Below are positions 10,754 through 49,704 of a DNA stretch of 64,000 bases, piece after piece. Below the pieces are notes generated by a model. The model was not told the origin of the DNA, did no database searches, and saw only the letters and a list, made by a program, of their open reading frames with translations. How positions within the stretch are numbered: position 1 is the first letter of the stretch; each line of letters opens with the position of its first letter. Location of the stretch: positions 23,583-87,582 of the forward strand of contig CAZOGI010000010.1 in the NCBI GenBank assembly GCA_964579435.1. The letters run 5' to 3'. The DNA is from an uncultured Planctomycetales bacterium (GTDB taxonomy: Bacteria; Omnitrophota; Gorgyraeia; Gygaellales; Profunditerraquicolaceae). The translations under genes and the position numbers were made by a program.

Positions 10754-11458
10754 GTGAACGCGCCGCCGCAGATCAGCGCTGTCGTCATGGCCTACAACGA
10801 GGCTGGGTCCCTGCGCAGCGTCGTCGAAGAGATCGGCAGGGAATTGCAGGGGCTCTCGCGTCCCTGCGAGATCATCATCGTAAACGACGGCTCGACCGAC
10901 GGGTCCGCGCAAGCGGCAGAGGAGCTCGCCCGGGCCAACCCGTCGGTAAGCGTGATACATCATCCGGCCAACCGCGGGTTAGGGGGGGTGTACGCGACCG
11001 GATTCGCCAAGGCGCGCGGCGACTACATCACCTTTTTCCCCGCGGACGGCCAATTCCCCGCCTCGATCATCAAACGCTTCTTGTGCCGCATGGACGATGC
11101 GGACCTGATCCTGGGATACATCCCCGAACGCAAAAGCCCCGTCCTGGGGATACTTCTGTCGGCATGCGAAAAACTGCTCTACCGCTGCCTTTTCGGCCCG
11201 GTCCCGCGGCTCCAGGGGATATTCATGGTGCGCCGCTCGATACTCCGGGAGCTGAACCTGCAGAGCGACCCCGCGCGGGGATGGGGGATCGTCATGGAGC
11301 TGATCATCAGGGCCCACCGCGCACGAATGCGGATCGCGCACGAATCAACCACCATGCGCCCCCGTTCCTGCGGCTCCTCGAAAGTGAACAACATACGGAC
11401 TGCAGCGGCTAATTTCAAACAGCTCCTGCGGCTCTTCTTCATCCTCAGACGCCGATGA
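10754..11458 (+). CDS. glycosyltransferase family 2, polyprenyl-phosphate glycosyltransferase-like (DPM1/ArnC/GtrB type)
   Basis: Track ORF 10442-11458 trimmed to GTG 10754 (TTG 10745 also possible). ISAVVMAYNEAGSL...IIIVNDGSTDGS...ANRGLGG. ATGA-coupled to the downstream GT-C-like gene. Confidence 0.75.
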   Translation: MNAPPQISAVVMAYNEAGSLRSVVEEIGRELQGLSRPCEIIIVNDGSTDGSAQAAEELARANPSVSVIHHPANRGLGGVYATGFAKARGDYITFFPADGQFPASIIKRFLCRMDDADLILGYIPERKSPVLGILLSACEKLLYRCLFGPVPRLQGIFMVRRSILRELNLQSDPARGWGIVMELIIRAHRARMRIAHESTTMRPRSCGSSKVNNIRTAAANFKQLLRLFFILRRR

Positions 11459-12975
11459 AACGCTCTAGCGGCATTATCCTGGCCGTACTGCTGGCGGCCA
11501 ACCTCGTTGCGCATTTCCTGCCCCTGGAACGCCAGGCCCTGGCGCCCGACGATTACGCGGCACTGGTCCGCGCCCGGGGAGTCTCCCTGAAACAGGCCCT
11601 GAGCAACACGCTGCGCTACCCCGACCGGCCGCTCAATTATCTGGTCCTGTATCTTCAGGCGCGCTTTACCGGCGACCATCCGCAAAGAGGGCTTGTCCTT
11701 GTATTTCTCTCCAGCACGCTTTTGCTGCTGTGCGTTTTCCTCCTCTTTGATGCGCTCACCGGCGAGCGGCGCCTGGCGCTGCTGGCAGGATTCTTTTACT
11801 GCCTGCTCCCTGTAAAGCTGGAGACCTACCATACGCCGATCTTTTTCAACACCAACCTCGCCAGCTGCCTTTTCGTGCTGAGTTTCTATTTCTTTGTGCG
11901 TTTCGCGAACGAAAACCGGCGTCTTTATCTGTCTCTGTCGCTGTTGCTCTACGGAACCGGCATCTTCTGGTACGAAATCGGATTTTTCCTCCCCATCATC
12001 GCCGCGTGCTACTACCTTTTCCAGCGCAAAGAAAAGATCGACTCCCGGGCGCTCCTGCCGTACCTGTCTCTCATGGGTATCTATGCGGCGTATCGCCTCT
12101 CGGGCGGGTTCGGTTGTGCGGACAGACCGGAGAGCACGCACCAGCTCCGGGCGGCGGCGTTTCCGCTCAATCTGCTGGAGCTGGCGCACCACCTGGGCGG
12201 CCGCTATCTCCTGCGCACCGCCGGCTACGGCCTTATGCAATTTTTCAAAGCGGATCTTGCCTGGCCGCTGGTATGGGCCGGGTGCAATGCGGCGTTACTC
12301 ACCCTGATCCAAAAGAGACACATGACACAGGACACAAGACACAAAAAAGAACCGGTCAACAACCTGTTTCTGACGTGTGTCTTCGCCTTTTTCGCGCTGC
12401 CCATCCTGCTCAACGGGGCAGGGGGGGTTGCCGGAAGACACCTGGTCCTGCCGTCGCTGGCCCTGGCACTGTGGCTTGCCCTCTGGTGCGACCGGCCTGC
12501 GCCCGCGGGCCGCCGGTTTTGGATCTGGATCAGCGCAGGGCTCCTGTGCATCAGCCAGGGGACTGCCTGGAGCCAGGTCGTCGCCTGCCGGATCAATGCG
12601 GGGATCTACCGCGCATTGAAAGCCAATGCCCCGCAGTTGCAGAAGGCCGAAACGGTCATCATCGATCTGGAGAGCTTCGCCCGCCACATCCCGTTCACCC
12701 TCGTGCAGCGCGATTTCAATGTGCTCAACACCTATTACGGCGTCCAGTGCCTGGAAGACTGGGGACTGGTCTCGATGGTGCGCCTTGCCGGCGGCTCCCG
12801 GCACCGGACGTATAGCGCGGTTTCTACGCCCGCTCCCGAAGGGGCCGATGAGCTGCGCTTCTCGATACTGCAGGACGCCGGCTACCGTACCAAGAAACGC
12901 CTGACGATAACCGTGCCGAAGAAAAACTCCTTCCTCCTCGACTATGCAGACGCACAACGATACTTTCCCCGCTAA
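11455..12975 (+). CDS. polytopic membrane protein, probable GT-C glycosyltransferase
   Basis: 506 aa. Many TM helices and a first-loop acidic motif APDDY. Carries an in-frame GACACNN heptamer repeat at 12316-12344. Confidence 0.5.
   Translation: MKRSSGIILAVLLAANLVAHFLPLERQALAPDDYAALVRARGVSLKQALSNTLRYPDRPLNYLVLYLQARFTGDHPQRGLVLVFLSSTLLLLCVFLLFDALTGERRLALLAGFFYCLLPVKLETYHTPIFFNTNLASCLFVLSFYFFVRFANENRRLYLSLSLLLYGTGIFWYEIGFFLPIIAACYYLFQRKEKIDSRALLPYLSLMGIYAAYRLSGGFGCADRPESTHQLRAAAFPLNLLELAHHLGGRYLLRTAGYGLMQFFKADLAWPLVWAGCNAALLTLIQKRHMTQDTRHKKEPVNNLFLTCVFAFFALPILLNGAGGVAGRHLVLPSLALALWLALWCDRPAPAGRRFWIWISAGLLCISQGTAWSQVVACRINAGIYRALKANAPQLQKAETVIIDLESFARHIPFTLVQRDFNVLNTYYGVQCLEDWGLVSMVRLAGGSRHRTYSAVSTPAPEGADELRFSILQDAGYRTKKRLTITVPKKNSFLLDYADAQRYFPR
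12316..12344. repeat. GACACNN heptanucleotide tandem repeat (4 units), copy inside a CDS
   Basis: AGACACATGACACAGGACACAAGACACAA matches 29274-29302 at 26 of 29 positions (23 of the 26-nt paired 12-mer core). Read in the same codon phase at both loci. Confidence 0.75.
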
Positions 12976-12991
12976 AAGCGGGAGATCGCCG

Positions 12992-14281
12992 ATGCGCATG
13001 CTGCTGGCAGCCGCCTTTGTGGGCGCCTGCGCGCTCTCTCCCGCATTCGGGCTCTGCAGCGCGCTCACCGTTGCATTTTTCCTCTTTGCGCGCTCCAGAA
13101 CCCCGAAAGAGTACCGGCTGCCCCTGACCGTTATCCTGGCAGGATCGCTTGCCGTCAGGCTGTTCCTGTTGGCCCTGCTGCAGCTGTTTTTACTCTCCCA
13201 GCAGCGGCTGGACCTCTTCGGCGACGCTGCCGACAATATCACGCACGGCATCCTGATCGCCCGGGCCCTGCCTGATCTAAACAGCCCCCTGGTCTACCAC
13301 ATCTCGCATCTCTGGTCGAATATCGCCTATAATATCCACATCAAAACCTTCTTCAACGGATTCTTCTTCCTCTTGGCCGGCCCGGATCTGCTGAGCCTCA
13401 AATACACCAACGCCCTGGCGATCGCCGCGGCCGCGTTTCTGCTCTTCCGGGTAGGCTGCGCGCTGCGCGGCCCCCGGACCGGGCTGTTCGCAGCAGCCCT
13501 GCTTTGCTTCTGGCCGACCCTGTTGATCTGGTCGCTCTCGGATCTTAAAGAGGCGCAGACGATCCTGACTATTTGCCTGCTCTTATTCTGCGGGGTGCGC
13601 ATCATCCTCAACCCTGGCGATGCGCGGATACTCGGTGCGCTCGTTCTCGCCGGAGGATACCTGGTGCTGCTGCGGACGAAACTGTTGCCGATCGTGATCG
13701 CCTATACGACGGCGGTCACGGTAACCGCTTTTTTCAAAACCATCCCTTCCGGCAAGCGCCCCTTCGCGGTTCTGATCCTGGCGCTGCTTTCGGGTGCGCT
13801 GCTCCTCTGGCAGCAAAAATACTTCTGGATCGGGTACGATCTGGTCCTCGGCGCCCAGATCGGCTTTCTCACCAGCGGCGGATGGAATTACGATTTCCTC
13901 CGTTATCTCAACGTACTCCCGCCACATTCACCCGGCTTCATGCTGCTTTTCTCTCTCTTTGCCTGGTTCCATTTCCTGAGCGAACCCTTGCCCTGGCACG
14001 GTTTTTCGCTGGGGCTGCGCACGCTCATTCCCTTTACCCTGCTCTGGTATGCGCTCTTGGCGATGGCCGTGCGCGGACTCTTTATGGTTTGGCAGCACCC
14101 GAACAAACGGTCCCGGATCGTACCTCTTTGCCTGTGGTTCTTGATCTACGGGACGATGGTCGGTATGTCCATCGCCAATATCGGCACCGCCGTGCGTTTT
14201 CGCGACGCGCTGCTGCCGGCCGTCGTCCTCCTGGCCGGCTGCGGGCTGCGCTCACACGATGACTCGACCGCCTGCCCATAA
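12992..14281 (+). CDS. polytopic membrane protein (glycan polymerase or GT-C-like; function unknown)
   Basis: Track ORF 12944-14281 trimmed to ATG 12992, which is preceded by a GGGAG SD. About 11 hydrophobic helices. No diagnostic motif recognised. Confidence 0.45.
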   Translation: MRMLLAAAFVGACALSPAFGLCSALTVAFFLFARSRTPKEYRLPLTVILAGSLAVRLFLLALLQLFLLSQQRLDLFGDAADNITHGILIARALPDLNSPLVYHISHLWSNIAYNIHIKTFFNGFFFLLAGPDLLSLKYTNALAIAAAAFLLFRVGCALRGPRTGLFAAALLCFWPTLLIWSLSDLKEAQTILTICLLLFCGVRIILNPGDARILGALVLAGGYLVLLRTKLLPIVIAYTTAVTVTAFFKTIPSGKRPFAVLILALLSGALLLWQQKYFWIGYDLVLGAQIGFLTSGGWNYDFLRYLNVLPPHSPGFMLLFSLFAWFHFLSEPLPWHGFSLGLRTLIPFTLLWYALLAMAVRGLFMVWQHPNKRSRIVPLCLWFLIYGTMVGMSIANIGTAVRFRDALLPAVVLLAGCGLRSHDDSTACP

Positions 14282-16528: not shown

Positions 16529-16532
16529 CACC

Positions 16533-17495
16533 ATGAAGATCGCCTCTGGCCTTCTGAACTCATACCGCAGCGTCAAAAAAAGCGCCCGCCATTTTCATAA
16601 TACCCGGCTGGACCGCTCGCCCAAGATGCTGGTGATTACCTATCACCGGGTAGTGCCTGCGGCCTGCTTCGATCCGCTGGGCGTCACCGTGAACCTGGAG
16701 ACGTTCAGGAAACAGATCCTCGGGATCGGCAGGAGATATCCGATCATTCCCCTGGCGACTGCCGCGGATTGGAGCAAAAACGGATTCCCCCGCCTGCCGC
16801 GCACGCACGCGGTCATCACGTTCGACGACGGCTATGCCGACAATTTCGCGTACGCCGCGGAATTCCTGAATGCACAGGGCATCCCGGCGGCATTCTTTGT
16901 GGTGACCGACTGGGCCGGTTCAAACCGGCTGCCCTGGGAGCATGTGCTGATGAGCGAACTCCTTCGGAAGAACACGGCGCTACGCGAACTGACGATCGGC
17001 ACTCGAACGATTTCCCAACGCACCGCCGAGTCGCGGCGGGCGTTCGCCCTGCGCGTCTTTGCGGCGGTCAAAACCGCTGCGCCCCAGGCGCGCCGCGGGC
17101 TTCAGGAGCGCCTCAACGACGGCGAAAAAACAGGAGAGCGCCTTTTTATGACCTGGGAGGAGCTGCACAGCCTCACCCGTTTTGGCCATGAGATCGGCTC
17201 CCACACCCAAACGCACCAATCGCTGCCGACCCTGCCGTTGGAAGAAGCGCTCCGGGAGATCCGTCAGAGTAAGGTTACCGTCGAGCGTCATACCAAAAGG
17301 CCCTGCCGTCATTTCGCCTTTCCCTTCGGCAGCCCCGACGACTACACCGATGAGCTTATCGAAGCGGTGCGCGCCGCCGGATATGATACCTGCCTCCTGA
17401 ATACCCAGGGCCCGACCCGGTTCGGACCGGAAACGTTCTGTTACCGCAGGATCGCCATGAGTGAGACAACCCGTATCTCCTCGCTGGCGGGATGA
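16533..17495 (+). CDS. polysaccharide deacetylase (NodB homology domain)
   Basis: 320 aa. HAVITFDDGYADNF (TFDDG motif) and a downstream His-rich HTQTH. Confidence 0.8.
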   Translation: MKIASGLLNSYRSVKKSARHFHNTRLDRSPKMLVITYHRVVPAACFDPLGVTVNLETFRKQILGIGRRYPIIPLATAADWSKNGFPRLPRTHAVITFDDGYADNFAYAAEFLNAQGIPAAFFVVTDWAGSNRLPWEHVLMSELLRKNTALRELTIGTRTISQRTAESRRAFALRVFAAVKTAAPQARRGLQERLNDGEKTGERLFMTWEELHSLTRFGHEIGSHTQTHQSLPTLPLEEALREIRQSKVTVERHTKRPCRHFAFPFGSPDDYTDELIEAVRAAGYDTCLLNTQGPTRFGPETFCYRRIAMSETTRISSLAG

Positions 17496-18448
17496 CCATG
17501 ATCTCCGTCGTCATCCCGACGCACAACCGGGCGGCATTCCTGCCCGAAGCGATCGAAAGCGCGCTGGCGCAGACGCACCCCGAGCGCGAGGTCATCGTTG
17601 TCGACGACGCCTCCACCGACGGGACCGGGGCGATCCTCACGCGCTTCGGCACGCGCATCCGCGCGCTCTTTCAGCAAAACAGCGAACGCGCCGCCGCGCG
17701 CAATAACGGCATCCGCCACGCACGCGGCGAGATCATCGCGCTGCTTGATTCCGACGACGCCTGGCTGCCCGAACACCTGGAATCCTGCTGGAAGTTGCTG
17801 CGGGATAACCCGCGCCTGGGCGTCGCTTTTGCGGGGTCCTACCTGATCGACGGGCAGGGACGCACCCTGGGGCGGATGCCGATACGCCGCCAGGAAGGGG
17901 CGCTTTTCGAAAAGATCGTCTCGAGCTTCTCCTCGGGCGGCTGCAACGCCTCATCCTGCCTGATCCGCCGGGATATCCTGCTCAAAGCGGGGCTCTTCAA
18001 CGAAAACCGGGCCCTCTGCGGCTCAGAGGACTGGGAGCTCTGGGCGCGCCTTGCGGCGCTAACACAGATCGCCCCGACCGACCGCTACACCGTCAAGGTC
18101 CGCACCCACGCACAGCAGACCTCCGCCAACGCCGAGCGCATGAGCGCGTCGATGCAGCTTGCCCTGCGCACGGTACTTGACAACCCGGCGCTGGCCGCAC
18201 GCACCGCCGGATTGCGCCGGCAGGCCGAATGCAGCATGCATACGGTCATCGCGACCGGCTATTACGGCTGCAAGGATATGCGCCGCGCCCGTGCGCACCT
18301 GGGTAAGGCGCTGCGCGCGTATCCAGCGGGGCTCTTCACCAACCGCCTCATTATCTTTACGCTGCTGCGTTCGCTCCTCGGAGGAGAACTCAGCAGTGCG
18401 CTGCGAAAGCTCAAATGGAAACTCCAGCACCAAACACTCAGCCGATAA
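17492..18448 (+). CDS. glycosyltransferase family 2
   Basis: 318 aa with ATGA start. ISVVIPTHNRAAFL...VIVVDDASTDGT and LLDSDD (DxD). Confidence 0.85.
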   Translation: MTMISVVIPTHNRAAFLPEAIESALAQTHPEREVIVVDDASTDGTGAILTRFGTRIRALFQQNSERAAARNNGIRHARGEIIALLDSDDAWLPEHLESCWKLLRDNPRLGVAFAGSYLIDGQGRTLGRMPIRRQEGALFEKIVSSFSSGGCNASSCLIRRDILLKAGLFNENRALCGSEDWELWARLAALTQIAPTDRYTVKVRTHAQQTSANAERMSASMQLALRTVLDNPALAARTAGLRRQAECSMHTVIATGYYGCKDMRRARAHLGKALRAYPAGLFTNRLIIFTLLRSLLGGELSSALRKLKWKLQHQTLSR

Positions 18449-19698: not shown

Positions 19699-19709
19699 GA
19701 GAGGAATCC

Positions 19710-21676: not shown

Positions 21677-21680
21677 CCTT

Positions 21681-23585: not shown

Positions 23586-23601
23586 GGCCCAAGAGAACCC
23601 C

Positions 23602-25488: not shown

Positions 25489-25501
25489 AAGAGGAGACCG
25501 C

Positions 25502-26991: not shown

Positions 26992-27004
26992 TTTCCCTTA
27001 CAAT
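26976..27004 (+). promoter_or_regulatory. sigma70-like promoter TTGTAA-17 nt-TACAAT
   Basis: -35 at 26976-26981 and -10 at 26999-27004 with an exact 17-nt spacer. Lies across the stop of the upstream gene, about 45 nt before ATG 27053, which has a GAGGA SD. Confidence 0.4.
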
Positions 27005-27052
27005 ATGCGCCAGATGAAAGATAACCAAGGCTCACCCAAACGAGGACAAAAG

Positions 27053-28027: not shown

Positions 28028-28049
28028 GCTCTTGCGCCATACGCACGCT

Positions 28050-32466: not shown

Positions 32467-32482
32467 CCGCTCCTTTTCCCGC

Positions 32483-37456: not shown

Positions 37457-37475
37457 CGGGCCGTTTTGCGGCCGT

Positions 37476-37814
37476 TCATGTCTTCTGGCCCTCTGCCTCC
37501 AGCAGCACGAGTCTTTGGGTAAGCAGTTTGATCTTCTGTTCGAGACAGGAGATAGCGATCGAAAAATGGAGCAGCATCGCCGTGATGACGAAAAACGCTG
37601 CAAGAAAGAGCAGGGAGGGAGGGTAGTAGACGCCGACGAGCGCCGAGACCCGCTCCAGCAACGCGCGCCAAAGGCACAGGGAGAGGAGCATCCCGCAGCC
37701 CAGAAGCCACAGCAGGGCATACTTCTCCTTAAGACGCCCCGTGCGGATGCTGTAGAAGACAAAACCGACCAGCGCCAGGATCCCGCATACCGCAAACACT
37801 TGTATCCGGCTCAT
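37476..37814 (-). CDS. DUF2304-family small membrane protein
   Basis: 112 aa. LKEKYALLWLL...YYPPSLLFL core plus a C-terminal coiled-coil tail. Start overlaps the stop of the upstream GT2. Confidence 0.7.
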   Translation of the reverse strand: MSRIQVFAVCGILALVGFVFYSIRTGRLKEKYALLWLLGCGMLLSLCLWRALLERVSALVGVYYPPSLLFLAAFFVITAMLLHFSIAISCLEQKIKLLTQRLVLLEAEGQKT

Positions 37815-38548
37815 TCCTCGCCTCCCGGGTTATCCGTTTTTCCTGCCGACACCAGCAACAGCGCCAAAGAGACTTTGGCCATGTAATACAACGCCCGCAA
37901 AGGGGTAATGCTCGAGCGGCCGCCGCAACGTCCCCGCATCGCCACCGGCACCTCAAGCACCCGGAAACCGCTCTTGAGCGCCAAAACCGTCGATTCCGGC
38001 TCCGGATAATCATCCGCATACTCCCGGGAAAAAAGCTCGACCACCTCACGCCTCATGAGACGCATACCCGAAGTCGGATCGGTTATCCAAACTCCGGTCC
38101 GCAGCCAGATCAGGCAGGACAGGAACCGGATACCGATCCTGCGCAGGAACGTGGAAGGATAGCCGCCTGCGGCACGGAAACGCGAGGCAATGACCATATC
38201 CGCACCCGCCTGCGAAGCGCGGCGGCACAGCAGCGCCGCCATCGCCGGGAGCGCCGCGGCGGGATGCTGTCCGTCGCCGTCAACCTGAACGAGGGCGTCA
38301 AATCCTTGGCGCAGGCAATAACGGAAACCCGTCTGCATGATCGCGCCGATCCCCATGTTGAAAGGCATCCGTAACACCGTAGCCCCGGCGGCACGGGCGG
38401 ACTCATCCGTCGCGTCCCCAGAAGCATCGTCGATCACCAGGACCTCGGCAGCCACGCCCGAACCCTTGACCTCGGCGATGACACCCCGAATGCTCTCTTC
38501 CTCGTTGTATGCGGGGACCACCGCCAGAACCCGCAATTGCTCACTCAT
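37811..38548 (-). CDS. glycosyltransferase family 2, polyprenyl-phosphate glycosyltransferase-like
   Basis: Track ORF trimmed to ATG 38548 (MSEQLRVLAVVPAYNEEESI). VLVIDDASGD and VDGDGQHP. Confidence 0.8.
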   Translation of the reverse strand: MSEQLRVLAVVPAYNEEESIRGVIAEVKGSGVAAEVLVIDDASGDATDESARAAGATVLRMPFNMGIGAIMQTGFRYCLRQGFDALVQVDGDGQHPAAALPAMAALLCRRASQAGADMVIASRFRAAGGYPSTFLRRIGIRFLSCLIWLRTGVWITDPTSGMRLMRREVVELFSREYADDYPEPESTVLALKSGFRVLEVPVAMRGRCGGRSSITPLRALYYMAKVSLALLLVSAGKTDNPGGEE

Positions 38549-40769: not shown

Positions 40770-40773
40770 TGGG

Positions 40774-41757
40774 TTACCTCTCCTGGCGCGCCTGAAAAAG
40801 CGCCAGCGCTTTCAGGACGACGCAGGTGGTATGCAAATAGAACCCCTCATCGACGCGCCTGCCGTAGAGGGCGCGCAAGCGCTCGTAGTCCCCGAAGGAG
40901 CCGTTCGGATTCTGGCAGGAGAGAAGGAACTTTACTCCCTGAGGGATAATCGTTGCTGTGCGCATTTTGAGCAGTTCCATGCACAGTAAAAGCTCGGCCA
41001 CCAGGTCGGGATCCCGCTTTCCGATATATGCCGCAGCCAGATCGCTCAGGACCGAATCCAGGTATTGCGCATCGCTTTCGCTCAGCAGCTCCGACAGGGA
41101 GTCGTCACCGAAGCCGGCGAGCGCCAGGACCTCATGCGTCAGCGCGTACACCTCCAGCGTATCGAGGGCAGAAGCATCGGGACGCGCCTGGATAATGCCC
41201 GCGCGGTATGCCGCACGCAGGTCAAAGGGCGGCTCGATGCCGAAAAAACGGTAATAGACGGCGAAAGCCAGCTGCTGGTTAACGCCCCGGGAAGAAAGGT
41301 GCGCGTTCAGGCGGGGGAGGATGGCGCGGATCTCTTGGCGGTATGCGGTTGTCTCGAAGCCGGATTTCTCCAGGAGGTAACAAAAACGCAGGTACGAGGT
41401 CGCATCCTCGGCAAACTGCTCCGCCGGGATCGCTCCCATATCGTGAAACGAAGCCTCCTCGGTGATGCGGGCGATCTTGCGCAGGCGCAGCTCGAGGGAC
41501 GGCCGCAGCTGCGGCGGCAGACGGGGCGCGATCGCCGTATACGCTTCAAAAAGCTCGACGGTCTTTTTCTTCCCCTTGATCCCGAAACGGCGCAATTGCC
41601 CCGGGTTAAACTCGATCGTATCCAGCCAGGGCGCAGCCTTGATCATGCTGCGCAGCAGGAGTTCCCGGAGCAAAGGCTCCGAGGAAGCGCCGCAACCGGG
41701 CACCGCGACAGAGAGGCCGACAACCAAAGCAAGGGGGAGGAAGGTACGGTTCGTCAT
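40774..41757 (-). CDS. secreted protein or lipoprotein with a prenyltransferase/terpene-cyclase-like alpha/alpha-toroid repeat
   Basis: 327 aa. Signal peptide LALVVGLSVAVPGCG with a possible lipobox. C-terminal LLSCQNPNGSFGDY. Confidence 0.45.
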   Translation of the reverse strand: MTNRTFLPLALVVGLSVAVPGCGASSEPLLRELLLRSMIKAAPWLDTIEFNPGQLRRFGIKGKKKTVELFEAYTAIAPRLPPQLRPSLELRLRKIARITEEASFHDMGAIPAEQFAEDATSYLRFCYLLEKSGFETTAYRQEIRAILPRLNAHLSSRGVNQQLAFAVYYRFFGIEPPFDLRAAYRAGIIQARPDASALDTLEVYALTHEVLALAGFGDDSLSELLSESDAQYLDSVLSDLAAAYIGKRDPDLVAELLLCMELLKMRTATIIPQGVKFLLSCQNPNGSFGDYERLRALYGRRVDEGFYLHTTCVVLKALALFQARQER

Positions 41758-41773
41758 AGCGACTTGAGGAAAT

Positions 41774-41802
41774 ATTATAACATGAAAGGTCGCAGGGACA
41801 CA
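41774..41802 (-). promoter_or_regulatory. candidate promoter for the minus-strand block (TGTGTC-17 nt-TATAAT)
   Basis: On the minus strand, TATAAT (plus-strand 41774-41779) lies 16 nt upstream of ATG 41757. The -35 is weak. Confidence 0.3.
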
Positions 41803-41831
41803 ATGACCCTTGATACCAGCCTAAAATCCCA

Positions 41832-41860
41832 TTGAGTTAACCGGCGGCGGTTGATAGAAT
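41832..41860 (+). promoter_or_regulatory. sigma70-like promoter TTGAGT-17 nt-TAGAAT, leaderless-type
   Basis: -35 at 41832-41837 and -10 at 41855-41860. ATG 41869 lies only 8 nt after the -10. Confidence 0.5.
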
Positions 41861-41868
41861 AAGGGCAG

Positions 41869-43308
41869 ATGAATATATTACTCCTGAACCCCTCCTTCGG
41901 CCCCGACTTCTGCAAATCCGCCCGCTGGTTCGCCCGCTCGCGCGGCAGGGTGCAGCGCCATCCCGATTTCCTCTGCGAGGCAACGGCGCTTCTGGAAGCG
42001 CACGGACACGACTGCGCGCTTATCGACGCGGCTGCCGGGAACCTCGGCGCCGAAGAGACCGCCCAACACATACGCCGCATCCGGCCGCAGTTGACGCTCA
42101 TCCAGGCAACGACCCCGAGCATCGATTCCGACATCTCCTGGGCCCGGCAGGCAAAAGAGCTGACCGGCGGCAGGTCCCGCACCGTTCTGGTCGGAGCGCA
42201 CGTGACCGCCGAACCCGAAGACACCTTGCGGCGGGGCAGGGGCGCGGTTGATGCCGTTGCCCGGGGAGAGTACGACCTGACGCTCAAGGAACTGGCAGAT
42301 GGATCTGACTTCGGCTCGATCCTTGGCCTTGCGTACCTGAGCGCCGACACGTTCGTCGCCACCGCGCCGCGCCCGTTCATCGAAGACCTGGACACGCTGC
42401 CCTTTCCGGCGTGGAGACACATCGACCCGCGCACCTACCGCGACGGGACCAAACGCCACCCCTTTATCACGCTGCTGGGCTCCCGGGGGTGCTTGGGGAC
42501 ATGCACCTTCTGCCTTTTGCCGCAAACGATGTACGGCCGCCGCGCCCGGACCAAGAGCCCGCAGCGCATTATCGATGAGATCCGCTACGATCTTGGCCTC
42601 TTCCCGTTCCTGAAGGAGATCATGTTCGAGGACGACACCTTTGTCAGCGCCGCTAACGCGGGGCGCCTCGAAAGCATATGCCGCCTCCTGGAAAAAGAAC
42701 GCATCCGCATACCCTGGAGCGCAAACGCGCGCGCCGACCTGCTCGACCGCGCGCTCCTGGAGCGCCTTAAAAAATGCGGTTGCAGGATGCTCTGCGTCGG
42801 TTACGAATTCGGCGCCCAGGAGATGCTGGATGCGGCCGGCAAGAATATTCCGCTTTCGACGATGCGCGAATTTTCCGCGTGGGCTGCCGAAGCCGGTATC
42901 CGCCTGCACGGCTGTTTCATGTTCGGCGGACCGGGGGAGAACGAGCGGACCTGCAGACAGACCCTGGAGTTCGCCAAAGAGCTTCCCCTGGAAACGGCCC
43001 AGTTCTCGGGGATCGCCGCGTACCCGGGCACCGCGTATTACCGGTGGTCGAAAGAGAAGGGATATCTGTGCGCCCGCGACTGGAGCGACTGGGTCCGCGC
43101 AGACGGCGAGCAGGCGACGGTGCTGCAGTTCCCCGGACTCCCCAAAGAAGAAATAAACCGCTGGATCAACAGGAGCCTGCGCGAATTTTACCTGCGTCCG
43201 GCGCAGCTCGCCCGGCTCGCGGGGGCGAGCCTGCGCAGCTGGAACGATTTCGAAACAAGGCTCTACGGTCTGCGTCAATTACTCGCGGGCGAGGCGCTCA
43301 AACGATGA
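41869..43308 (+). CDS. B12-binding-domain radical SAM enzyme (paralogue 1)
   Basis: 479 aa. N-terminal MNILLLNP...HGHDCALIDA (B12-binding-like). LLGSRGCLGTCTFC CxxxCxxC cluster motif. Confidence 0.85.
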   Translation: MNILLLNPSFGPDFCKSARWFARSRGRVQRHPDFLCEATALLEAHGHDCALIDAAAGNLGAEETAQHIRRIRPQLTLIQATTPSIDSDISWARQAKELTGGRSRTVLVGAHVTAEPEDTLRRGRGAVDAVARGEYDLTLKELADGSDFGSILGLAYLSADTFVATAPRPFIEDLDTLPFPAWRHIDPRTYRDGTKRHPFITLLGSRGCLGTCTFCLLPQTMYGRRARTKSPQRIIDEIRYDLGLFPFLKEIMFEDDTFVSAANAGRLESICRLLEKERIRIPWSANARADLLDRALLERLKKCGCRMLCVGYEFGAQEMLDAAGKNIPLSTMREFSAWAAEAGIRLHGCFMFGGPGENERTCRQTLEFAKELPLETAQFSGIAAYPGTAYYRWSKEKGYLCARDWSDWVRADGEQATVLQFPGLPKEEINRWINRSLREFYLRPAQLARLAGASLRSWNDFETRLYGLRQLLAGEALKR

Positions 43309-44705
43309 ACGTGCTCTTTATCGAACCTCCTGCCTTCGGCCCGTTCGGGACCCTGCGGATCCTGGGCAGCATCGGCTCGCTCAAGGCCGACATCCGCTGG
43401 CCGCCGTACGACCTGATGATCCTGGCGGGGATGGCGCGCGCGCAAAAACATCGCGCGCAGATCATCGATGCCCAAACCCGGGGCATGGACCTGCGCGCCG
43501 TGAAAGCCGCGATCGCCTCGCGCAATCCCGATTTTGTCGTTTTCACGACGACGCCGTTGACGCTGAGAGAGGATGCCCGCGTCGCAGAAGCCGCAAAAGC
43601 GGCTTCTGCCGCCATTCGCACCGTTGCCGTCGGACTCTCCATGCGCGCCTATCCGCTCAACCCCCTGCAGGAGACCCCGGCGCTGGACTATGCGGCGTAT
43701 GCCGATCCCGAGCCGATCCTCTCACAACTCCTGGAAGGGTGCCCCCCCGAAACAATCCCCGGGATATACCGCAGAGGCGCCGATCTTGCCGTCAAGAACC
43801 CGCCTGCGCAGCCGGCCCCGGATCTTGACCGCTTCGGTATACCCGCCCAGGACCTCATCGAGCATGCGCGATACCGCGATCCGCTCATGCGCGCGCGGCC
43901 GATGACCATCGTCAACTGTTCCCGCGGCTGTGCGGGATCCTGCGCCCACTGCCTCTCCGTTTTCCAGAAACCCCTGCGCTACCGAAGCGTCGCTTCGGTG
44001 ATGGAGGAGCTGCGGCTGTGTTGGCGGCTGGGCGTGCGCGAGATAAAATTTTTCGATTGCGGATTGACCAACGACCCTGACTGGACACGAAGGCTCTGCG
44101 AGGAGATGCTGCGCGGGGGGCTGTGCTTCTCCTGGAACGCAAACAGCCGTTGCGACCGTCTCAGCCTGCCGCTTTTGAAGCTGATGAAAAGAGCGGGGTG
44201 CCATACGGTGGCGATCGGCTCGGAGAGCGCAAGCAATACGGTACTGCGGGAGATGAACAAAGGGGTCACCCGCGATGGCATTGCCAAAGCCGTCGCAGAA
44301 GCCCGGAAGGCAGGCCTACGCATCATGCTCTATTTCACCCTGGGGCTCAAAGGGGAAACCGAAGAGACCGTCAAAGAGACCATCTCCTTCGCAAAAAGAA
44401 TGAACCCGGACTTCGCCACCTTCGGCCTGGCCGTGCCCATCCCGCAGACTCCCTTTTACGATTATCTCGTATCACAGGGGCTGCTCAAGAACGCCGGGAA
44501 CGCCTCCGGCGACCCGGACAACATACCCGCGTTTTCCTATCCGGGTTTAAGCGCTGCGCGGCTCTTTGCGCTCTCCCGAGAAGCATACCGTTCGTTTTAT
44601 CTGCGCCCGTCCTACATCCTGAAGAAACTCCTGGGGGCAACGCCCCGGGGGCTGATCAACGACGCGCGCAACGCCGTATACCTGGCGAAACGGATACTGC
44701 AATGA
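43305..44705 (+). CDS. B12-binding-domain radical SAM enzyme (paralogue 2)
   Basis: Track ORF 42774 trimmed to ATG 43305 (ATGA overlap). MNVLFIEPP..., VNCSRGCAGSCAHC. Confidence 0.85.
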   Translation: MNVLFIEPPAFGPFGTLRILGSIGSLKADIRWPPYDLMILAGMARAQKHRAQIIDAQTRGMDLRAVKAAIASRNPDFVVFTTTPLTLREDARVAEAAKAASAAIRTVAVGLSMRAYPLNPLQETPALDYAAYADPEPILSQLLEGCPPETIPGIYRRGADLAVKNPPAQPAPDLDRFGIPAQDLIEHARYRDPLMRARPMTIVNCSRGCAGSCAHCLSVFQKPLRYRSVASVMEELRLCWRLGVREIKFFDCGLTNDPDWTRRLCEEMLRGGLCFSWNANSRCDRLSLPLLKLMKRAGCHTVAIGSESASNTVLREMNKGVTRDGIAKAVAEARKAGLRIMLYFTLGLKGETEETVKETISFAKRMNPDFATFGLAVPIPQTPFYDYLVSQGLLKNAGNASGDPDNIPAFSYPGLSAARLFALSREAYRSFYLRPSYILKKLLGATPRGLINDARNAVYLAKRILQ

Positions 44706-46093
44706 CCGGACAAACAATCCTCCTGGTCAATCCCGGTCACCGCGAATGGGCGCGTGTGCTGCCGCTGGGCATCGCCTACGTTGCCGCTGCCGCCCGGAAA
44801 GCGGGATTCCCGGTGCGCACGATCGACGCAACCGCCGAACGACTTTCACCGCAGGCGCTGGCCCTGCGATTGAAAAAACTCAAACCTGCGGTCCTGGGGA
44901 TCACCGCGACCACGGTGCAGATCGCCTCTGCCTGGGAGATCGCCCGCCTGGCAAAAGAGCATGATCCCGGCTGCGTCACGGTGCTGGGAGGAGTCCACCC
45001 CAGCGCGCTGCCCGAGGAGAGCCTGGGACAGCCGTCTGTTGATTTCGTCTGCAGGGGAGAGGGAGAAGCAACTTTCGTTTCTTTACTCAGCGCCCTTTCC
45101 TCCCGCACTCACCCAGGGTCGGTCCAGGGGATATCCTTCCGCTCAAACGGCTCTGTCGTGCACACGCCGGACCGCCGGCTCGTTCCCGATCCGGACCTCT
45201 TCGCGTTTCCGGCGCGGGAGCTCTTTGACTTCCCCCGCCGGTACCAAAGCCCCCTTGCCCTGCGAAGAAGATGCGCGACGATCCTGACCAGCAGGGGCTG
45301 CCCGGGCACCTGCACCTTCTGCAACAAAAATATCTCCGGAAGCGTCTTTAGGCCGCGCAGCCCCGCCTCGGTCATCGAAGAGATGGAATCGCTCATCCGC
45401 ACCTTCGGCATCCAGGAATTCCATATTGCCGACGACTGTTTCAGCTGGGACATGCAGCGGGTCATGGACCTCTGCGCGCTGATGCGCAAACGCATCCCCG
45501 CCATCCGCTGGGCCTGCACCAACGGCATCCGCGTCGACCGCTCGACCAAACCGTTCTTTCGCGAAATGAAAGCCGCCGGCTGTTACCGCGTCTCCTTCGG
45601 CGTCGAATCGGGAGACGAGGCGCTGCTGAAGCGCATCGGCAAGAATATAGACCAGGAATCGATACGCAGGGCCGTCTCGCTTGCCCAAAGCGCAGGACTC
45701 GTCACCATCTGCTTTTTTATGCTCGGCAATCACGGCGAGACTGCCGCTCACGCTCAAAAAACCATCGAATTCGCCCGCTCTCTGCGCACCGATTACGCCC
45801 AGTTCACGCTGGCCATGCCCTATCCGGGAACCGCATTTTTCAGGCAGCTGGAGAAAGAAGGCCGGATCCGCAGCCGCGATTGGAGGAGGTATTCGGTGTA
45901 CGGGCCGGACATTCCCTACGAGCCGGCCGGGATGAGCGCAGAGGAATTGCTGGGCTTCTACAGACAGGCGTACCGCGCCTTTTATCTGCGGCCACGGCAG
46001 ATCGCCTTTCTCCTTTCCCGGCGGCTGCGCCTCGGCGCCGGCATCGGCAGCTTCGTACGCTCATCAGCGGAGGTCTTGCGCCGTGCCCGATAA
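44702..46093 (+). CDS. B12-binding-domain radical SAM enzyme (paralogue 3)
   Basis: Track ORF 44123 trimmed to ATG 44702 (ATGA overlap). TILLVNPGH..., LTSRGCPGTCTFC. Confidence 0.85.
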   Translation: MTGQTILLVNPGHREWARVLPLGIAYVAAAARKAGFPVRTIDATAERLSPQALALRLKKLKPAVLGITATTVQIASAWEIARLAKEHDPGCVTVLGGVHPSALPEESLGQPSVDFVCRGEGEATFVSLLSALSSRTHPGSVQGISFRSNGSVVHTPDRRLVPDPDLFAFPARELFDFPRRYQSPLALRRRCATILTSRGCPGTCTFCNKNISGSVFRPRSPASVIEEMESLIRTFGIQEFHIADDCFSWDMQRVMDLCALMRKRIPAIRWACTNGIRVDRSTKPFFREMKAAGCYRVSFGVESGDEALLKRIGKNIDQESIRRAVSLAQSAGLVTICFFMLGNHGETAAHAQKTIEFARSLRTDYAQFTLAMPYPGTAFFRQLEKEGRIRSRDWRRYSVYGPDIPYEPAGMSAEELLGFYRQAYRAFYLRPRQIAFLLSRRLRLGAGIGSFVRSSAEVLRRAR

Positions 46094-47084
46094 GAGCGCC
46101 ATGCCGGACATAGCCATCATCATTCCCGCCCGCAACTGCGCCGGCACCATACCGCTTGCGCTACAGGCGTGCCTCAAGCAGGATTACGCCGGCAGATACG
46201 AAATAATCGTCGTGGATGACGGCTCAACCGATGATACCGCAGCGGCCGTCAAAAATTTCCCCGTGCGTCTCATCGAACAAAAACACGCCGGCCCTGCCTG
46301 CGCGCGCAACCGGGGGACAAAAGCTTCAGAGGCGCAGCGCTACGCTTTCATCGATGCGGACTGCGTGCCGCCGTGCGATTGGCTGCGGCGCCTCAACGCT
46401 GCCTTCACGGCAACGGGGTACGCCTGCGCCTACGGCAGCTACACGATCCGCAACAAAAACTCCCTCCTGGCGGAAGGGATCTACCGGGAAATACTCCTGC
46501 GCCACAGCCGCCTCAAACAGGACTCTGCCGCACTCGGCTCCTACAACGCAATCTTCGACGCGACAGTCTTTCACGAATGCGGCGGCTTCGACGAATCATT
46601 CCGGGACGCAAGCGCCGAGGACACGGAGCTGGCGTACCGCCTTCGCCGCAACGGCAAACGCATACTTTTTCTGCCGGAGTGCACAGTGGCGCATCTTTTC
46701 CCCGAGCAGCTGGATTTCTATCTGGCTTCCCAATTCCGCCACGGTTTCTGGAGAGCGCGTCTCTACAGGCTGCATCCGGCAATGGCGGCAGGGGACGGAT
46801 ACACGCGGCTCAAGGACATCATCGAGACGCCCGCGGCGCTCCTGCTGAGCCTCTGCGCCGCGTTCTTTTTTCATCACGCCTGCCGCGTTGCCGCACTCCT
46901 GCTCTTTGCGGGACTGCTGCTTGCGCATGGCGCCTCCGCGGCGCAGCTCTCCCTGCAGGCGAAAAAGCCGGCGCTCCTCCTGTATGCCGGCGCGCTGCTC
47001 CTGCGCAGTTTTGCGCGGGCATACGGATTCTTTTTCGGGCTTCTGGCACTTCCCGGCAAAAACCGATGCGCTGCTCGATCGTAA
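46083..47084 (+). CDS. glycosyltransferase family 2 with C-terminal TM helices
   Basis: 333 aa; GTG 46083, or ATG 46101 as an alternative start. IAIIIPARNCAGTI...IIVVDDGSTDDT and FIDADC. Confidence 0.75.
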   Translation: MPDKSAMPDIAIIIPARNCAGTIPLALQACLKQDYAGRYEIIVVDDGSTDDTAAAVKNFPVRLIEQKHAGPACARNRGTKASEAQRYAFIDADCVPPCDWLRRLNAAFTATGYACAYGSYTIRNKNSLLAEGIYREILLRHSRLKQDSAALGSYNAIFDATVFHECGGFDESFRDASAEDTELAYRLRRNGKRILFLPECTVAHLFPEQLDFYLASQFRHGFWRARLYRLHPAMAAGDGYTRLKDIIETPAALLLSLCAAFFFHHACRVAALLLFAGLLLAHGASAAQLSLQAKKPALLLYAGALLLRSFARAYGFFFGLLALPGKNRCAARS

Positions 47085-47752
47085 TCCCCGCCCACAACGA
47101 AGAGGGCACGATCCGGACGCTCCTGGAAAGAACCCGGGAGTTTCTCGGCGGAACCGGGGAATGCGAGATCATTGTGGTCGATGACGGCTCAAGCGATAAA
47201 ACCGCAGAGCGGGTGCAGAAACTGGCGGCATCGATCCCGACGATACGGCTCCTGCGTCTTTCTCCCCGCAGAGGGCAGGGGATGGCGCTTGCCGCCGGGA
47301 TTGCTGCCGCACAGACCGGCATCATCGTCACGATGGATGCCGACCTGCAGAACGACCCGGCCGATATCCCGGCCCTGCTTGAGCGTCTCGAAAACGGCTT
47401 TGACGTTGTCTGCGGCTGGCGCAAAAACAGGAAAGACCCGTTCGTAAAACGAATAAAATCCCGGGTCGCCAACCTCTTGCAACGCCTTTTGCTCGGCGTT
47501 AAACTGCATGATATGAGCTGCACCCTGCGCGCCTACCGGCGGGAGGCGCTCGAAGGGATCGAATTCGGGCGGGGGTATGATTTTTCGCTCCTGCCGTACC
47601 TGATCGCGCGCCGCAAAGCCATGCGCATCTGCGAGGTCCCGGTCAGCCACGAGCGCCGGCACAGCGGCACCTCCAAATACGGGTTTTGGGGGACCTGCGC
47701 CGGGACATTCGTCAGTTTTGTGCGCTGCGTTGCAGCGCGACCGCATAAATGA
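47066..47752 (+). CDS. glycosyltransferase family 2, polyprenyl-phosphate glycosyltransferase (ArnC/GtrB/DPM1 type)
   Basis: Track ORF 46373 trimmed to ATG 47066. CSIVIPAHNEEGTI...IIVVDDGSSDKT...MDADLQNDP...CTLRAYRREAL. Confidence 0.85.
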   Translation: MRCSIVIPAHNEEGTIRTLLERTREFLGGTGECEIIVVDDGSSDKTAERVQKLAASIPTIRLLRLSPRRGQGMALAAGIAAAQTGIIVTMDADLQNDPADIPALLERLENGFDVVCGWRKNRKDPFVKRIKSRVANLLQRLLLGVKLHDMSCTLRAYRREALEGIEFGRGYDFSLLPYLIARRKAMRICEVPVSHERRHSGTSKYGFWGTCAGTFVSFVRCVAARPHK

Positions 47753-47799
47753 GGCGTGACCATCTAGAAACAAGAGACCTGGGTCAGGAAACATGCACA

Positions 47800-49704
47800 A
47801 TGCAAGGATACCCCATGACTGATCGCCGATTCAACCTTTTCATCAGCTTCGCCTGCCTGGCGCTCATCGCGCTCTCCTACGCCAACACTCTCAAGGCGGA
47901 TTTCCACTTCGACGATTTCGACAGCATCGTCAATGTCCCGGCGATCCGCAGCCTGACCAATTTCAAGGAGATATTCCGTCTCACCGAACGGCCGCTCGTC
48001 AACTACTCCTTCGCCGTCAACTACTTCTTCGGAAAACTCAACGTCACCGGATTCCATCTGGTCAATATCGGGCTCCACGCGCTCTGCACGCTGCTGGTCT
48101 TTTTCTTCCTGCGGGAATTGCTTGGCGTACCCCTGCTTAAGGAACGCTACAGCCAAAAGATTGGCCGGTGGCTCTCTGCGGGAAGCGCGTTTCTTTTTGC
48201 CGTCCATCCGGCCAGAGTGGAAGCGGTCACGTATATTACCGCCCGATCGGAGAGCATGGCGTCGGCTTTTTATCTGCTCTCCTGCCTTTGCTTCCTGAAA
48301 TCCCTCTCTGACATCAAGAGAGAGCGGCTCTTCCAAGCGGCGGCAATTGTAGCCAGCGCCATCGGCATGGCAACCAAGGAGATCGTCGCCACACTGCCGG
48401 CGTCCCTGCTGCTGCTCGATTATCTTTTTGTGTGCGCCGGGAATCCCGCCTGCCTGAAGAAACGCGCCCGGTTCCATGCCTCGATGTTCGCCACGATCGC
48501 CGTTACCGTTGCGCTGGTGCTCTATTCGGACAAATGGGGAGCAGCCGGACTGGGTAACCCGAACCTGCACACGCCCCTTCAACACGCCCTCAGTGGTTTG
48601 CGCGCGTACGTCTATTATCTGGCCCTTTTCATCTTTCCGGCACCCGGACGCCTTAACTTCGACACCGATTTTGCCCTCTCCCGCAGCTTCACCGAACCGC
48701 AGGTCCTCGGCGCAAGCCTCTTCATCGCCGCGGCACTTGTCTTGGCCCTGTACGAATCGCGCCGGTGCCCCTTGATCACCTTCGCGATCTTGTGGTATTT
48801 TCTCCTGCTTCTGCCGACCACCAGCTTCATTCCGATCGAAGACCTCGTCTATGAGCGCAGGATGTATCTGGCCGCGCTCGGGCCCGGGCTCATCACGCTC
48901 CTTGCCCTCGGGCCGCTTCCCCGACGCCTGCGCATCGGCATTCTGGCGCTGACAGTCGGGATCCTCTCCCTGTGGACCATCCAGCGCAACGCCATCTGGC
49001 GAACCGAATTCTCCCTCCTGAGCGATTCGCTCAAAAAATCTCCGTACAAAACCCGCACGCTTACGAATATGGGCATGTTTTACCTCACCAAACAACAGGA
49101 CTTAGCTGCTGCCCGCTCCTACCTTGCCAGGGCCTTGCACTACAACCCGGATGCGGCAAACAGCCTGCTGAATATGGGCGTGGTGCAGCTGTTGGAGAAC
49201 AATCTGTCCGGGGCAGAACAACTTTTCCGTAAATTGCTTTATCTCTTTCCGGACGCAACCGCCGGCTATGTCAACCTGGCGACCGTATACCGCCGCTCCG
49301 GCCGGCTCCGGGAAGCAGAAGAGCTTCTACGAACCGCAATCACCATCGAACCTTCCTTCGCGGAAGCGTACGGGAATCTGGGCGTTATTCTGGCAAGCAA
49401 AAGAGAATTTGAGGAAGCCGAAAAGGCGCTTATTAAATCAATCGCTCTGAATCCCGATCTGCCTGAGCCGCACCATAGCCTGGGGCTCATCTATCAGAAG
49501 AGGGGTGACCATAAAAACGCTATCACTCAATTCCAGAGAGCCGTCACTTTGCAGCCTCAATTTTCAAAGGCTCTTTACAGCATGGGCATCTCGTACCTGG
49601 CGCTTGGAGATAAAGAAAAAGCAGAGGAGACGTATGCGAAGCTCCTGAAAATCAATCTTGATCTGGCGCTAAACTTGTTGTCCAGGATTGAGTTAAGACT
49701 TTAG
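47800..49704 (+). CDS. TPR-repeat GT-C glycosyltransferase-like protein (TMTC/DUF1736-type)
   Basis: Track ORF 47749 trimmed to ATG 47800. TM1 then FHFDDFD, about 10 TM helices, and a C-terminal TPR array. Paralogue of 34685-37456. Confidence 0.7.
   Translation: MQGYPMTDRRFNLFISFACLALIALSYANTLKADFHFDDFDSIVNVPAIRSLTNFKEIFRLTERPLVNYSFAVNYFFGKLNVTGFHLVNIGLHALCTLLVFFFLRELLGVPLLKERYSQKIGRWLSAGSAFLFAVHPARVEAVTYITARSESMASAFYLLSCLCFLKSLSDIKRERLFQAAAIVASAIGMATKEIVATLPASLLLLDYLFVCAGNPACLKKRARFHASMFATIAVTVALVLYSDKWGAAGLGNPNLHTPLQHALSGLRAYVYYLALFIFPAPGRLNFDTDFALSRSFTEPQVLGASLFIAAALVLALYESRRCPLITFAILWYFLLLLPTTSFIPIEDLVYERRMYLAALGPGLITLLALGPLPRRLRIGILALTVGILSLWTIQRNAIWRTEFSLLSDSLKKSPYKTRTLTNMGMFYLTKQQDLAAARSYLARALHYNPDAANSLLNMGVVQLLENNLSGAEQLFRKLLYLFPDATAGYVNLATVYRRSGRLREAEELLRTAITIEPSFAEAYGNLGVILASKREFEEAEKALIKSIALNPDLPEPHHSLGLIYQKRGDHKNAITQFQRAVTLQPQFSKALYSMGISYLALGDKEKAEETYAKLLKINLDLALNLLSRIELRL

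Follow-up and report, generated by a model that had tools for sequence, protein, structure and literature searches.

We analysed a 64-kb stretch of contig CAZOGI010000010.1 (assembly GCA_964579435.1; the whole stretch is called the window below), in which ~45 open reading frames (ORFs) were scanned with Pfam and NCBIfam. The window has a G+C content of ~60% and is almost wholly occupied by one glycan-biosynthesis locus. Our subject is ten genes within it, encoding three short family 2 glycosyltransferases (GT2a, GT2b and GT2c), a small DUF2304 membrane protein, and six polytopic glycosyltransferases of the GT-C type (GTC0, GTCa, M3, TPR1, GTCb and TPR3), three of which carry tetratricopeptide repeats (TPRs). 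An ORF check recovered all ten as a first-pass annotation of this DNA had drawn them:

10754-11458, plus strand: GT2a, 234 aa, no membrane helix; by its sequence a probable synthase of polyprenyl-phosphate sugars, with less certainty than the other two
37811-38548, minus strand: GT2b, 245 aa, no membrane helix; PpgS/AglJ/dolichyl-phosphate hexose transferase type
47066-47752, plus strand: GT2c, 228 aa, ArnC-like, ending where the membrane helices of ArnC would begin
37476-37814, minus strand: DUF2304 protein, 112 aa, three membrane helices; GacJ/Rv3632 family
3318-5156, plus strand: GTC0, 612 aa polytopic PMT_2-type GT-C, no TPR and no adjacent GT2; IDD and NNDEGY after helix 1
11455-12975, plus strand: GTCa, 506 aa PMT_2-type GT-C; APDDY after helix 1
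12992-14281, plus strand: M3, 429 aa divergent GT-C; invariant G77-D78 loop and a W-S...L-K-E motif
34685-37456, minus strand: TPR1, 923 aa TMTC-like GT-C; FQFDD after helix 1, long C-terminal TPR array; last gene of its operon
38541-40769, minus strand: GTCb, 742 aa PMT_2-type GT-C ending in a TPR array; precedes GT2b within one operon
47800-49704, plus strand: TPR3, 634 aa TMTC-like GT-C; crosses the membrane with 11 helices, has FHFDD in its first outside loop and ends in a TPR array that also lies outside

The genes are tightly coupled. The stop codon of GT2a and the start codon of GTCa overlap as ATGA. On the minus strand, five genes form an operon in the order DUF6895 (40774-41757), GTCb, GT2b, DUF2304 and TPR1, with an overlap of 8 bp between GTCb and GT2b, one of 4 bp between GT2b and DUF2304, and a gap of 19 bp before TPR1. 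The start of GT2c is overlapped by 19 bp by an upstream gene for a membrane-anchored GT2 (46083-47084), and TPR3 begins ~50 bp past the end of GT2c (47752 to 47800), its start being placed at 47815 in the deposited annotation (P0001). Three pairs of a GT2 with a GT-C, as proposed in the first-pass annotation, are thus present, but the GT2b/DUF2304 genes are bracketed by two TPR-bearing GT-Cs (GTCb and TPR1) and not simply paired with 38541-40769. With six GT-C genes and translational coupling within 64 kb, a chance arrangement is excluded.

All three short GT2s match the Pfam family Glycos_transf_2 (E 2e-25, 2.6e-17 and 2e-35), and their best matches among solved structures are dolichyl-phosphate mannose synthase (DPMS, 5mlz), ArnC and GtrB. 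Residues 2-226 of GT2c align with residues 9-232 of the 327 of solved ArnC (E 5e-36); the protein also matches the NCBIfam ArnC model at E 1.6e-38 and carries the motifs DADLQ and RRHSGTSKY. For GT2b the best NCBIfam match is PpgS (E 8.2e-26), followed by AglJ and dolichyl-phosphate hexose transferase; its best structural matches, DPMS and ArnC, span the full soluble domain, and its motifs are DGDGQ (metal) and RGRCGGRSS. GT2a is best matched by DPMS 5mlz (residues 6-212, E 3.7e-12) and then by ArnC, shares 31% identity with GT2c over 220 aa (E 1e-22), and has RPRSCGSSK, a form of the R..G.SK motif, with an amphipathic helix behind it at the C-terminus. This motif region of the short GT2s aligns with RARGESK in DPMS and REFGDSKY in ArnC. 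The combination of a metal-binding D-x-D-x-Q with R..G.SK that marks polyprenyl-phosphate GT2s is therefore found in the set, in GT2a with loss of the first Asp.

The three short GT2s group together, apart from the other three GT2s of the locus, which group with each other. The latter, used as controls (8366-9289, 17492-18448 and 46083-47084), best match TuaG, EpsD and MftF, all of cytoplasmic-acceptor types. Resemblance to DPMS, ArnC and GtrB thus prevails over resemblance to processive or cytoplasmic-acceptor GT2s, most weakly for GT2a. None of the three clusters with the controls, in line with their earlier assignment to the ArnC/GtrB type. We conclude that all three are probably of the lipid-phosphate (polyprenyl-phosphate) type, GT2a being the weakest case. 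A hydropathy scan found in none of them the C-terminal membrane helices of GtrB, ArnC and archaeal DPMS. A helix-less sub-type of similar length exists, the PpgS model of NCBIfam comprising 226 positions and that of haloarchaeal dolichyl-phosphate hexose transferase 213. Human DPM1 is likewise without a membrane helix. GacI has been described as a putative cytoplasmic glycosyltransferase (bioRxiv 10.1101/180810), and a cytoplasmic GT-A enzyme working with a separate small membrane protein has precedent (PMC8035078; 10.1101/180810).

Such a small protein is encoded next to GT2b. The product of 37476-37814 matches PF10066 over the entire profile (positions 1-106 of 106, E 3.8e-23) and contains three hydrophobic segments, so that a small three-helix DUF2304 protein, adjacent to and co-transcribed with a GT2, is present as in GacI/GacJ-type partnerships. 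GacJ forms a complex with the GT2 GacI, with which it co-purifies, and brings this enzyme's Km for undecaprenyl phosphate down from 18.7 to 1.1 µM, while PpgS is stimulated by Rv3632; the proposed streptococcal flippase is a separate Wzx-type protein, GacK, and the GT-Cs of these systems are GacL and Rv3779 (bioRxiv 10.1101/180810; PMC9671496; PMC8035078). By this analogy, DUF2304 is likely to be the membrane partner and activator of GT2b, and the pair an instance of the GacI/GacJ-type two-protein synthase. The first-pass annotation had suggested a GtrA-like flippase instead. We rejected this reading: the only family match is to DUF2304 (GacJ/Rv3632), whose published role is that of a GT2 activator, the protein does not belong to the GtrA/DPMS-TM family, and translocation is assigned in the literature to GacK.

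Turning to the membrane enzymes, GTC0, GTCa and GTCb score above the Pfam cut-off for PMT_2 (26.1 bits), with 47.5 bits (E 2.9e-12), 31.8 bits (E 2e-7) and 37.5 bits (E 3.6e-9), respectively, and GTCb matches TPR families as well. M3, earlier regarded as ambiguous, can now be called a divergent GT-C. The protein itself has no Pfam match, and a sequence-profile search of its family against solved structures gave nothing significant; PMT_2 is matched by 11 of 14 family members (best E 1.2e-8), and the top Foldseek matches of its structure model (predicted local distance difference test score, pLDDT, 81) are all GT-C enzymes, namely STT3, AglB, ArnT, ALG9 and PglB (E down to 7.7e-5, probability 1.00). 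Comparison of the M3 family with the alignment of the TMTC-like family (A1) by hhalign gave a probability of 3.9%. The GD of the first loop is invariant in the M3 family, and M3 retains all 26 invariant columns. All six membrane proteins are thus GT-C by hidden Markov model or by fold, the number that the first-pass annotation had given as an upper limit, and identities as transporters or polymerases were rejected. Acidic residues occur in the first extracytoplasmic loop of these proteins, the APDDY of 11455-12975 and the FHFDD of 47800-49704 lying directly after the first hydrophobic helix. Placement of the acidic loops on the outside is based on helix count and charge distribution.

Pfam finds long TPR arrays in the three proteins for which they had been proposed (38541-40769, 34685-37456 and 47800-49704). 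Two of these, TPR1 and TPR3, are paralogs (30% identity over 639 aa, E 3e-73) whose N-terminal domains have no Pfam or NCBIfam GT-C match, and so a structure model was needed to establish their GT-C nature. Sequence and profile searches of solved structures with TPR3 and with alignment A3 returned nothing significant, and Foldseek with the TPR3 model returned TPR proteins only. The model itself, built from 61 homologs, is of high confidence (pLDDT 94.9, predicted template modelling score 0.92), and the GT-C fold of the TMTC-like enzymes is predicted to be nearest to that of PMT protein mannosyltransferases. The TPR3 model crosses the membrane 11 times, starting from an N-terminus on the inside, and Lys and Arg abound in its short inner loops; the TPR array and the FHFDD loop would therefore lie outside the membrane, which agrees with the earlier proposal that the acidic motif faces the periplasm. 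D38, D39, R64, H93, Y145, R149, K193, P200, P280 and Y356 are invariant in the TPR1/TPR3 family. The DD is invariant in 61 sequences (alignment A1), and TPR1 has the same conserved columns (DD, R, H, Y, R and P).

In the model, an 11-helix GT-C with a DD loop and C-terminal TPRs on the same side thus reproduces the architecture of eukaryotic TMTC enzymes, whose published topology has 11 helices and a DD loop, sets a hydrophobic helix that does not cross the membrane ahead of the helix 7-8 loop, and puts the TPRs in the lumen (PMC7801869). TMTC_DUF1736, the Pfam family of the helix 7-8 loop, has no match in TPR1 or TPR3 at E <= 1. A homolog, P0172, aligns with residues 16-415 of TPR3 (BLASTP E 2e-30) and has a true TMTC_DUF1736 match (E 1.2e-11) exactly over the part aligned to TPR3 ~254-316. 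This indicates that TPR1 and TPR3 are homologous to TMTCs while falling outside the family as defined by Pfam. The likeness to TMTC noted earlier is therefore real for 34685-37456 and 47800-49704 with respect to helices, DD, TPRs, PMT-like fold and the P0172 link, but does not extend to a direct DUF1736 match. The TMTC-like family is very large, with 52,489 cluster representatives at E <= 0.001 and 22,289 at E <= 1e-10, most of them labelled only "tetratricopeptide repeat protein". Its genes frequently come in twos or threes, as tandem or convergent paralogs (L008, L017 and L021), which suggests sets of enzymes with different acceptors.

Each pair recurs in the closest relatives found. A metagenome contig (L001) encodes a relative of GT2c (51% identity) and, directly after it, one of TPR3 (46%), and near this pair lie a PMT_2 protein with TPRs (a GTCb relative, next to the GT2c relative), a further PMT_2 protein and B12 radical SAM genes. 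An Omnitrophota metagenome-assembled genome (MAG; L010) holds relatives of GT2a (48%), GTCa (42%) and M3, adjacent and in the same order, and M3 is part of a conserved block with DegT, a FemAB-like acetyltransferase, a deacetylase, a GT2 and a GT4. Directly 3' of the M3 relatives, L010 (7337-8785) and L011 (7340-8788) encode a 482-aa protein in which a sugar nucleotidyltransferase is fused to a DPM1-like GT2; judging from its domains, this one polypeptide would both activate the sugar and load the lipid. A Bacteroidetes MAG (L007, 2092-5266) carries a compact trio of DUF2304 (34%), a TMTC-like gene and a GT2b relative (40.5%), situated among integrase, ribosomal protein L33 and signal recognition particle genes and away from any polysaccharide cluster. 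A syntenic locus (L012) holds a 37%-identical GTC0 relative.

Taken together, the locus is a dense new instance of a known multi-component transmembrane glycosylation scheme, the variant element being the TPR-fused TMTC-like transferases. We consider it likely, and the best explanation of the data, that modules of lipid-sugar synthases and periplasmic GT-Cs are embedded in an exopolysaccharide (EPS) pathway. The ArnC/ArnT (or GtrB/GtrC) logic invoked in the first-pass annotation is borne out insofar as the short GT2s best match solved polyprenyl-phosphate glycosyltransferases, the six membrane proteins are GT-C, and the pairs recur in relatives. For what lies beyond these domain identities, folds, motifs, gene couplings and syntenies, namely the lipid carrier, the sugars, the flipping step, the acceptors and the periplasmic orientation (deduced from helix count and positive-inside charges), we would propose the following. 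At the cytoplasmic face, GT2a, GT2b and GT2c, as soluble or peripheral enzymes, would each load polyprenyl (undecaprenyl) phosphate with a single sugar taken from a nucleotide sugar; GT2b would do so in complex with DUF2304, which would activate and anchor it in the way that GacJ serves GacI and Rv3632 serves PpgS. The lipid-linked monosaccharides would then be moved across the membrane by a flippase not identifiable in the window, and at the periplasmic face the six GT-Cs, with their acidic first-loop sites, would pass the sugar to acceptors. As for likely sets of donor and transferase, GT2a would serve GTCa and M3, GT2b/DUF2304 would serve GTCb and TPR1, and GT2c would serve TPR3; no synthase is encoded near GTC0.

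The acceptor of the GT-Cs without TPRs is most likely the exported polymer, because of the EPS context and the conserved M3 block. The acceptor of the three TPR enzymes could be either polymer or protein. Periplasmic scaffolds for polysaccharide export, among them BcsC, PgaA, AlgK and PelB, commonly carry TPR domains too, and thus the presence of TPRs does not separate the two.

Several observations weigh against the module interpretation. The best NCBIfam match of GT2a is generic and covers the N-terminal half only, and its metal motif reads PADGQ and not DADLQ, the first Asp of the DxD being replaced (PAD). A DUF2304-like partner is missing for GT2a and GT2c, neither a GtrA-type nor a Wzx-type flippase turned up among the window genes scanned, the M3 model is of moderate confidence (pLDDT 81, template modelling score ~0.45), and the analysis singles out no sugar and no acceptor. 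Nor is there a DPM1-like GT2 within 8-10 kb of the TMTC-like genes in L002, L003, L005, L008, L009 or L014-L021. Single-protein scans found a flanking DPM1-like GT2 in one of five genome loci (L004) and in none of ten metagenome loci. GT2 adjacency as a general property of the family was dropped, since most TMTC-like loci are without a nearby GT2. A DPM1-like GT2 does lie near a TMTC-like gene in ~3 of 13 usable loci (rough binomial p ~0.001-0.02 against a rough background); adjacency thus appears enriched and not obligatory, consistent with shared donors made elsewhere, as in Lactococcus.

Among competing explanations, the one that survives best concerns the TPR enzymes. TPR1, TPR3 and possibly GTCb may be periplasmic protein O-glycosyltransferases, bacterial counterparts of TMTC1-4, whose TPR arrays would bind secreted or envelope proteins and whose donor would come from GT2b/DUF2304 or GT2c. 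We hold this to be possible, on balance unlikely. The predicted fold nearest to PMT protein mannosyltransferases, the TMTC architecture and the transitive DUF1736 link all favour it, as does the distance of the L007 trio from polysaccharide genes. Further to that, an operon in an Omnitrophota MAG (L004, 1638-11749) combines a PilB-like ATPase, a PilC-like platform protein, an N_methyl pilin-like protein, two GT2s, two PMT_2 proteins and a TMTC-like protein, an arrangement that points to pilin glycosylation by such enzyme sets. However, the genes of the present locus sit inside an EPS cluster, and literature searches found no experimentally studied bacterial member of the TMTC-like family. A candidate acceptor is encoded downstream of TPR3:

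49951-57924: giant protein, 2657 aa, with a Sec signal peptide, 12 FG-GAP repeats and a C-terminal hydrophobic helix

The giant protein also contains Propeptide_C25 and Peptidase_C25 (gingipain-like) domains in residues 1551-2483 and a tail rich in Thr, Ser, Ala and Glu. The signal peptide and the T/S/A-rich tail would suit a glycosylated protein, but a strong hairpin parts its gene from TPR3. Right after the TPR3 stop (49700-49830) there is a long imperfect hairpin of GGAGT/ACTCC-type units (-42.5 kcal/mol, z -5.0), folding better than any shuffled sequence and without an Rfam match, followed by an A/T-rich spacer and then the giant gene. The hairpin probably marks the edge of a transcript, and we rejected the idea that TPR3 and the giant gene are transcribed together. 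In L001, the 46%-identical TPR3 relative is followed by a GT4 gene, with no giant gene there. The functional link drawn earlier between TPR3 and the giant protein is accordingly weak, adjacency being all that connects the two.

It may be, more boldly, that the entire FxFDD-plus-TPR family (22,289 representatives, E <= 1e-10) consists of periplasmic protein O-glycosyltransferases with a GacI/GacJ-like donor supply and with pilins and large secreted adhesin-like proteins, such as the FG-GAP/C25 giant, as targets. To this we give a slimmer chance and offer it as speculation. If true, a widespread and so far unstudied protein glycosylation pathway would exist in Gram-negative and candidate phyla.

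An improbable alternative to the embedded modules is that the short GT2s are ordinary cytoplasmic extenders of a repeat unit on undecaprenyl diphosphate, while the GT-Cs use other donors (undecaprenyl-diphosphate-linked oligosaccharides) or act as ligases or polymerases, adjacency merely reflecting shared membership in the EPS cluster. The generic, N-terminal NCBIfam matches of GT2a and the many TMTC-like genes without a GT2 neighbour would fit this picture, and the best fold matches of M3 are oligosaccharyltransferases; M3, however, at only 429 aa, is without the periplasmic domain of STT3/PglB. The match of GT2c to ArnC across its whole soluble domain, that of GT2b to PpgS, and the known partnership of DUF2304 with lipid-sugar synthases speak against it. 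So do the overlapping start and stop codons, the retention of the pairs across distant lineages, and the separate Wzy_C protein encoded at 31234-32466. Finally, that some of the six GT-C paralogs are catalytically inactive and assist the export machinery as TPR scaffolds or chaperone-like partners seems very improbable: the locus does hold many paralogs, and GTCb has FDS (in FDSQYYD) at the first-loop position instead of DD or DE, but TPR1 and TPR3 keep every invariant residue of the 61-sequence alignment and M3 every invariant column of its family.

The embedded modules lie within a conventional assembly line, whose components, with the ordinary GT2s, are as follows:

8366-9289, 17492-18448 and 46083-47084: "ordinary" GT2s, differing in type from GT2a, GT2b and GT2c
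29428-31233: WecA-like initiating enzyme with a CoA_binding_3 domain
31234-32466: Wzy_C protein
61915-63846: Wzz/GNVR/tyrosine-kinase protein

The WecA-like enzyme, the Wzy_C protein and the Wzz/tyrosine-kinase protein together identify the locus as a Wzy-dependent EPS pathway, to which the GT2/GT-C modules are extra genes. The window also encodes sugar-precursor enzymes (nucleotidyltransferases, epimerases/dehydratases, RmlC- and RmlD-like enzymes and a DegT aminotransferase), acetyltransferases, a polysaccharide deacetylase, an AsnB-like amidotransferase and four GT4 transferases; an Rfam scan of the window gave no matches. The initiating enzyme (601 aa) is an unusual hybrid of both classes of such enzymes, a WecA/MraY-type phosphotransferase domain (residues 15-328) being joined to a CoA_binding_3 part (371-595) that corresponds to the N-terminal, non-catalytic half of a WbaP/WcaJ-type phosphoglycosyltransferase. 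A 149-aa RmlC-like protein (7026-7475) also matches Polysacc_synt_C, which is odd for a protein of cupin size, and the same holds for its counterpart in the syntenic L012 (3854-4303). The last of the ordinary GT2s (46083-47084, 333 aa) has C-terminal membrane helices, is GT21/HpnI-like and may be a lipid glycosyltransferase; a similar gene, for 318 aa, is found in L001. Between the GT-C operons lie three successive B12-binding radical SAM genes (41869-46093) and the minus-strand DUF6895 gene (40774-41757). B12 radical SAM genes adjoin PMT_2 or TMTC-like genes in five related loci (L001, L008, L010, L011 and L012), one of them in L001 being fused to DUF6895, and their products may methylate a sugar or lipid. 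On the 3' side of the giant gene (57921-61824), a weakly ScmC-like protein, a radical SAM/SPASM maturase and an NTP_transf_5 protein resemble a peptide-maturation cassette.

The logic of a lipid-phosphate synthase feeding a GT-C is textbook, and the locus is mostly an ordinary, if unusually dense, case of polysaccharide decoration. Its main value lies in the TPR-fused TMTC-like GT-C family, which is enormous and escapes the GT-C models of Pfam and NCBIfam. The conserved neighbours (the ArnC-like short GT2, the GacI/GacJ-like pair and one pilin operon) provide a handle for assigning donors and acceptors, and a route to asking whether bacteria have TMTC-type protein glycosylation.

The closest known systems are GacI/GacJ/GacK/GacL of Streptococcus pyogenes and PpgS/Rv3632/Rv3779 of Mycobacterium tuberculosis, in which a helix-less cytoplasmic GT2 makes a polyprenyl-phosphate monosaccharide, an adjacent three-helix DUF2304 protein boosts this GT2, and, outside the membrane, a GT-C moves the sugar onto the completed cell-wall polymer. 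The PpgS model is the best match of GT2b, whose gene overlaps that of DUF2304 in the same arrangement. Unlike in those systems, the module here is flanked by two TPR-fused GT-Cs, one of them TMTC-like, and belongs to an uncultivated bacterium and not to a firmicute or actinobacterium; no equivalent of the Wzx-type GacK was seen in the window. With ArnC/ArnT and GtrB/GtrA/GtrC, which modify lipid A and O-antigen, the locus shares the feeding of a periplasmic GT-C by a lipid-phosphate sugar synthase. However, GT2a, GT2b and GT2c have none of the two C-terminal membrane helices of ArnC and GtrB, there is no GtrA-like protein here, and ArnT and GtrC are without a TPR domain.

TPR1 and TPR3 share with TMTC1-4, the eukaryotic protein O-mannosyltransferases, the ~11 helices, the invariant DD of the first non-cytoplasmic loop, C-terminal TPRs on the same side, a fold predicted to be nearest to PMT, and a conserved loop that ends in D-aromatic and is preceded by a hydrophobic non-membrane helix. 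They differ in missing DUF1736, in that their donor would be linked to undecaprenyl phosphate and not be dolichyl-phosphate mannose, and in that cadherin-type acceptors are not applicable to them. Finally, the csdAB, csdCD and csdEF genes of Lactococcus lactis encode several GT-A/GT-C pairs, each decorating a different envelope polymer, with a shared flippase, CflA, encoded elsewhere (PMC8035078). The present bacterium resembles Lactococcus lactis in having several such pairs in one organism; whereas the lactococcal GT-As are membrane-anchored and the lactococcal GT-Cs have no TPR arrays, here the pairs are concentrated in one 64-kb EPS locus.

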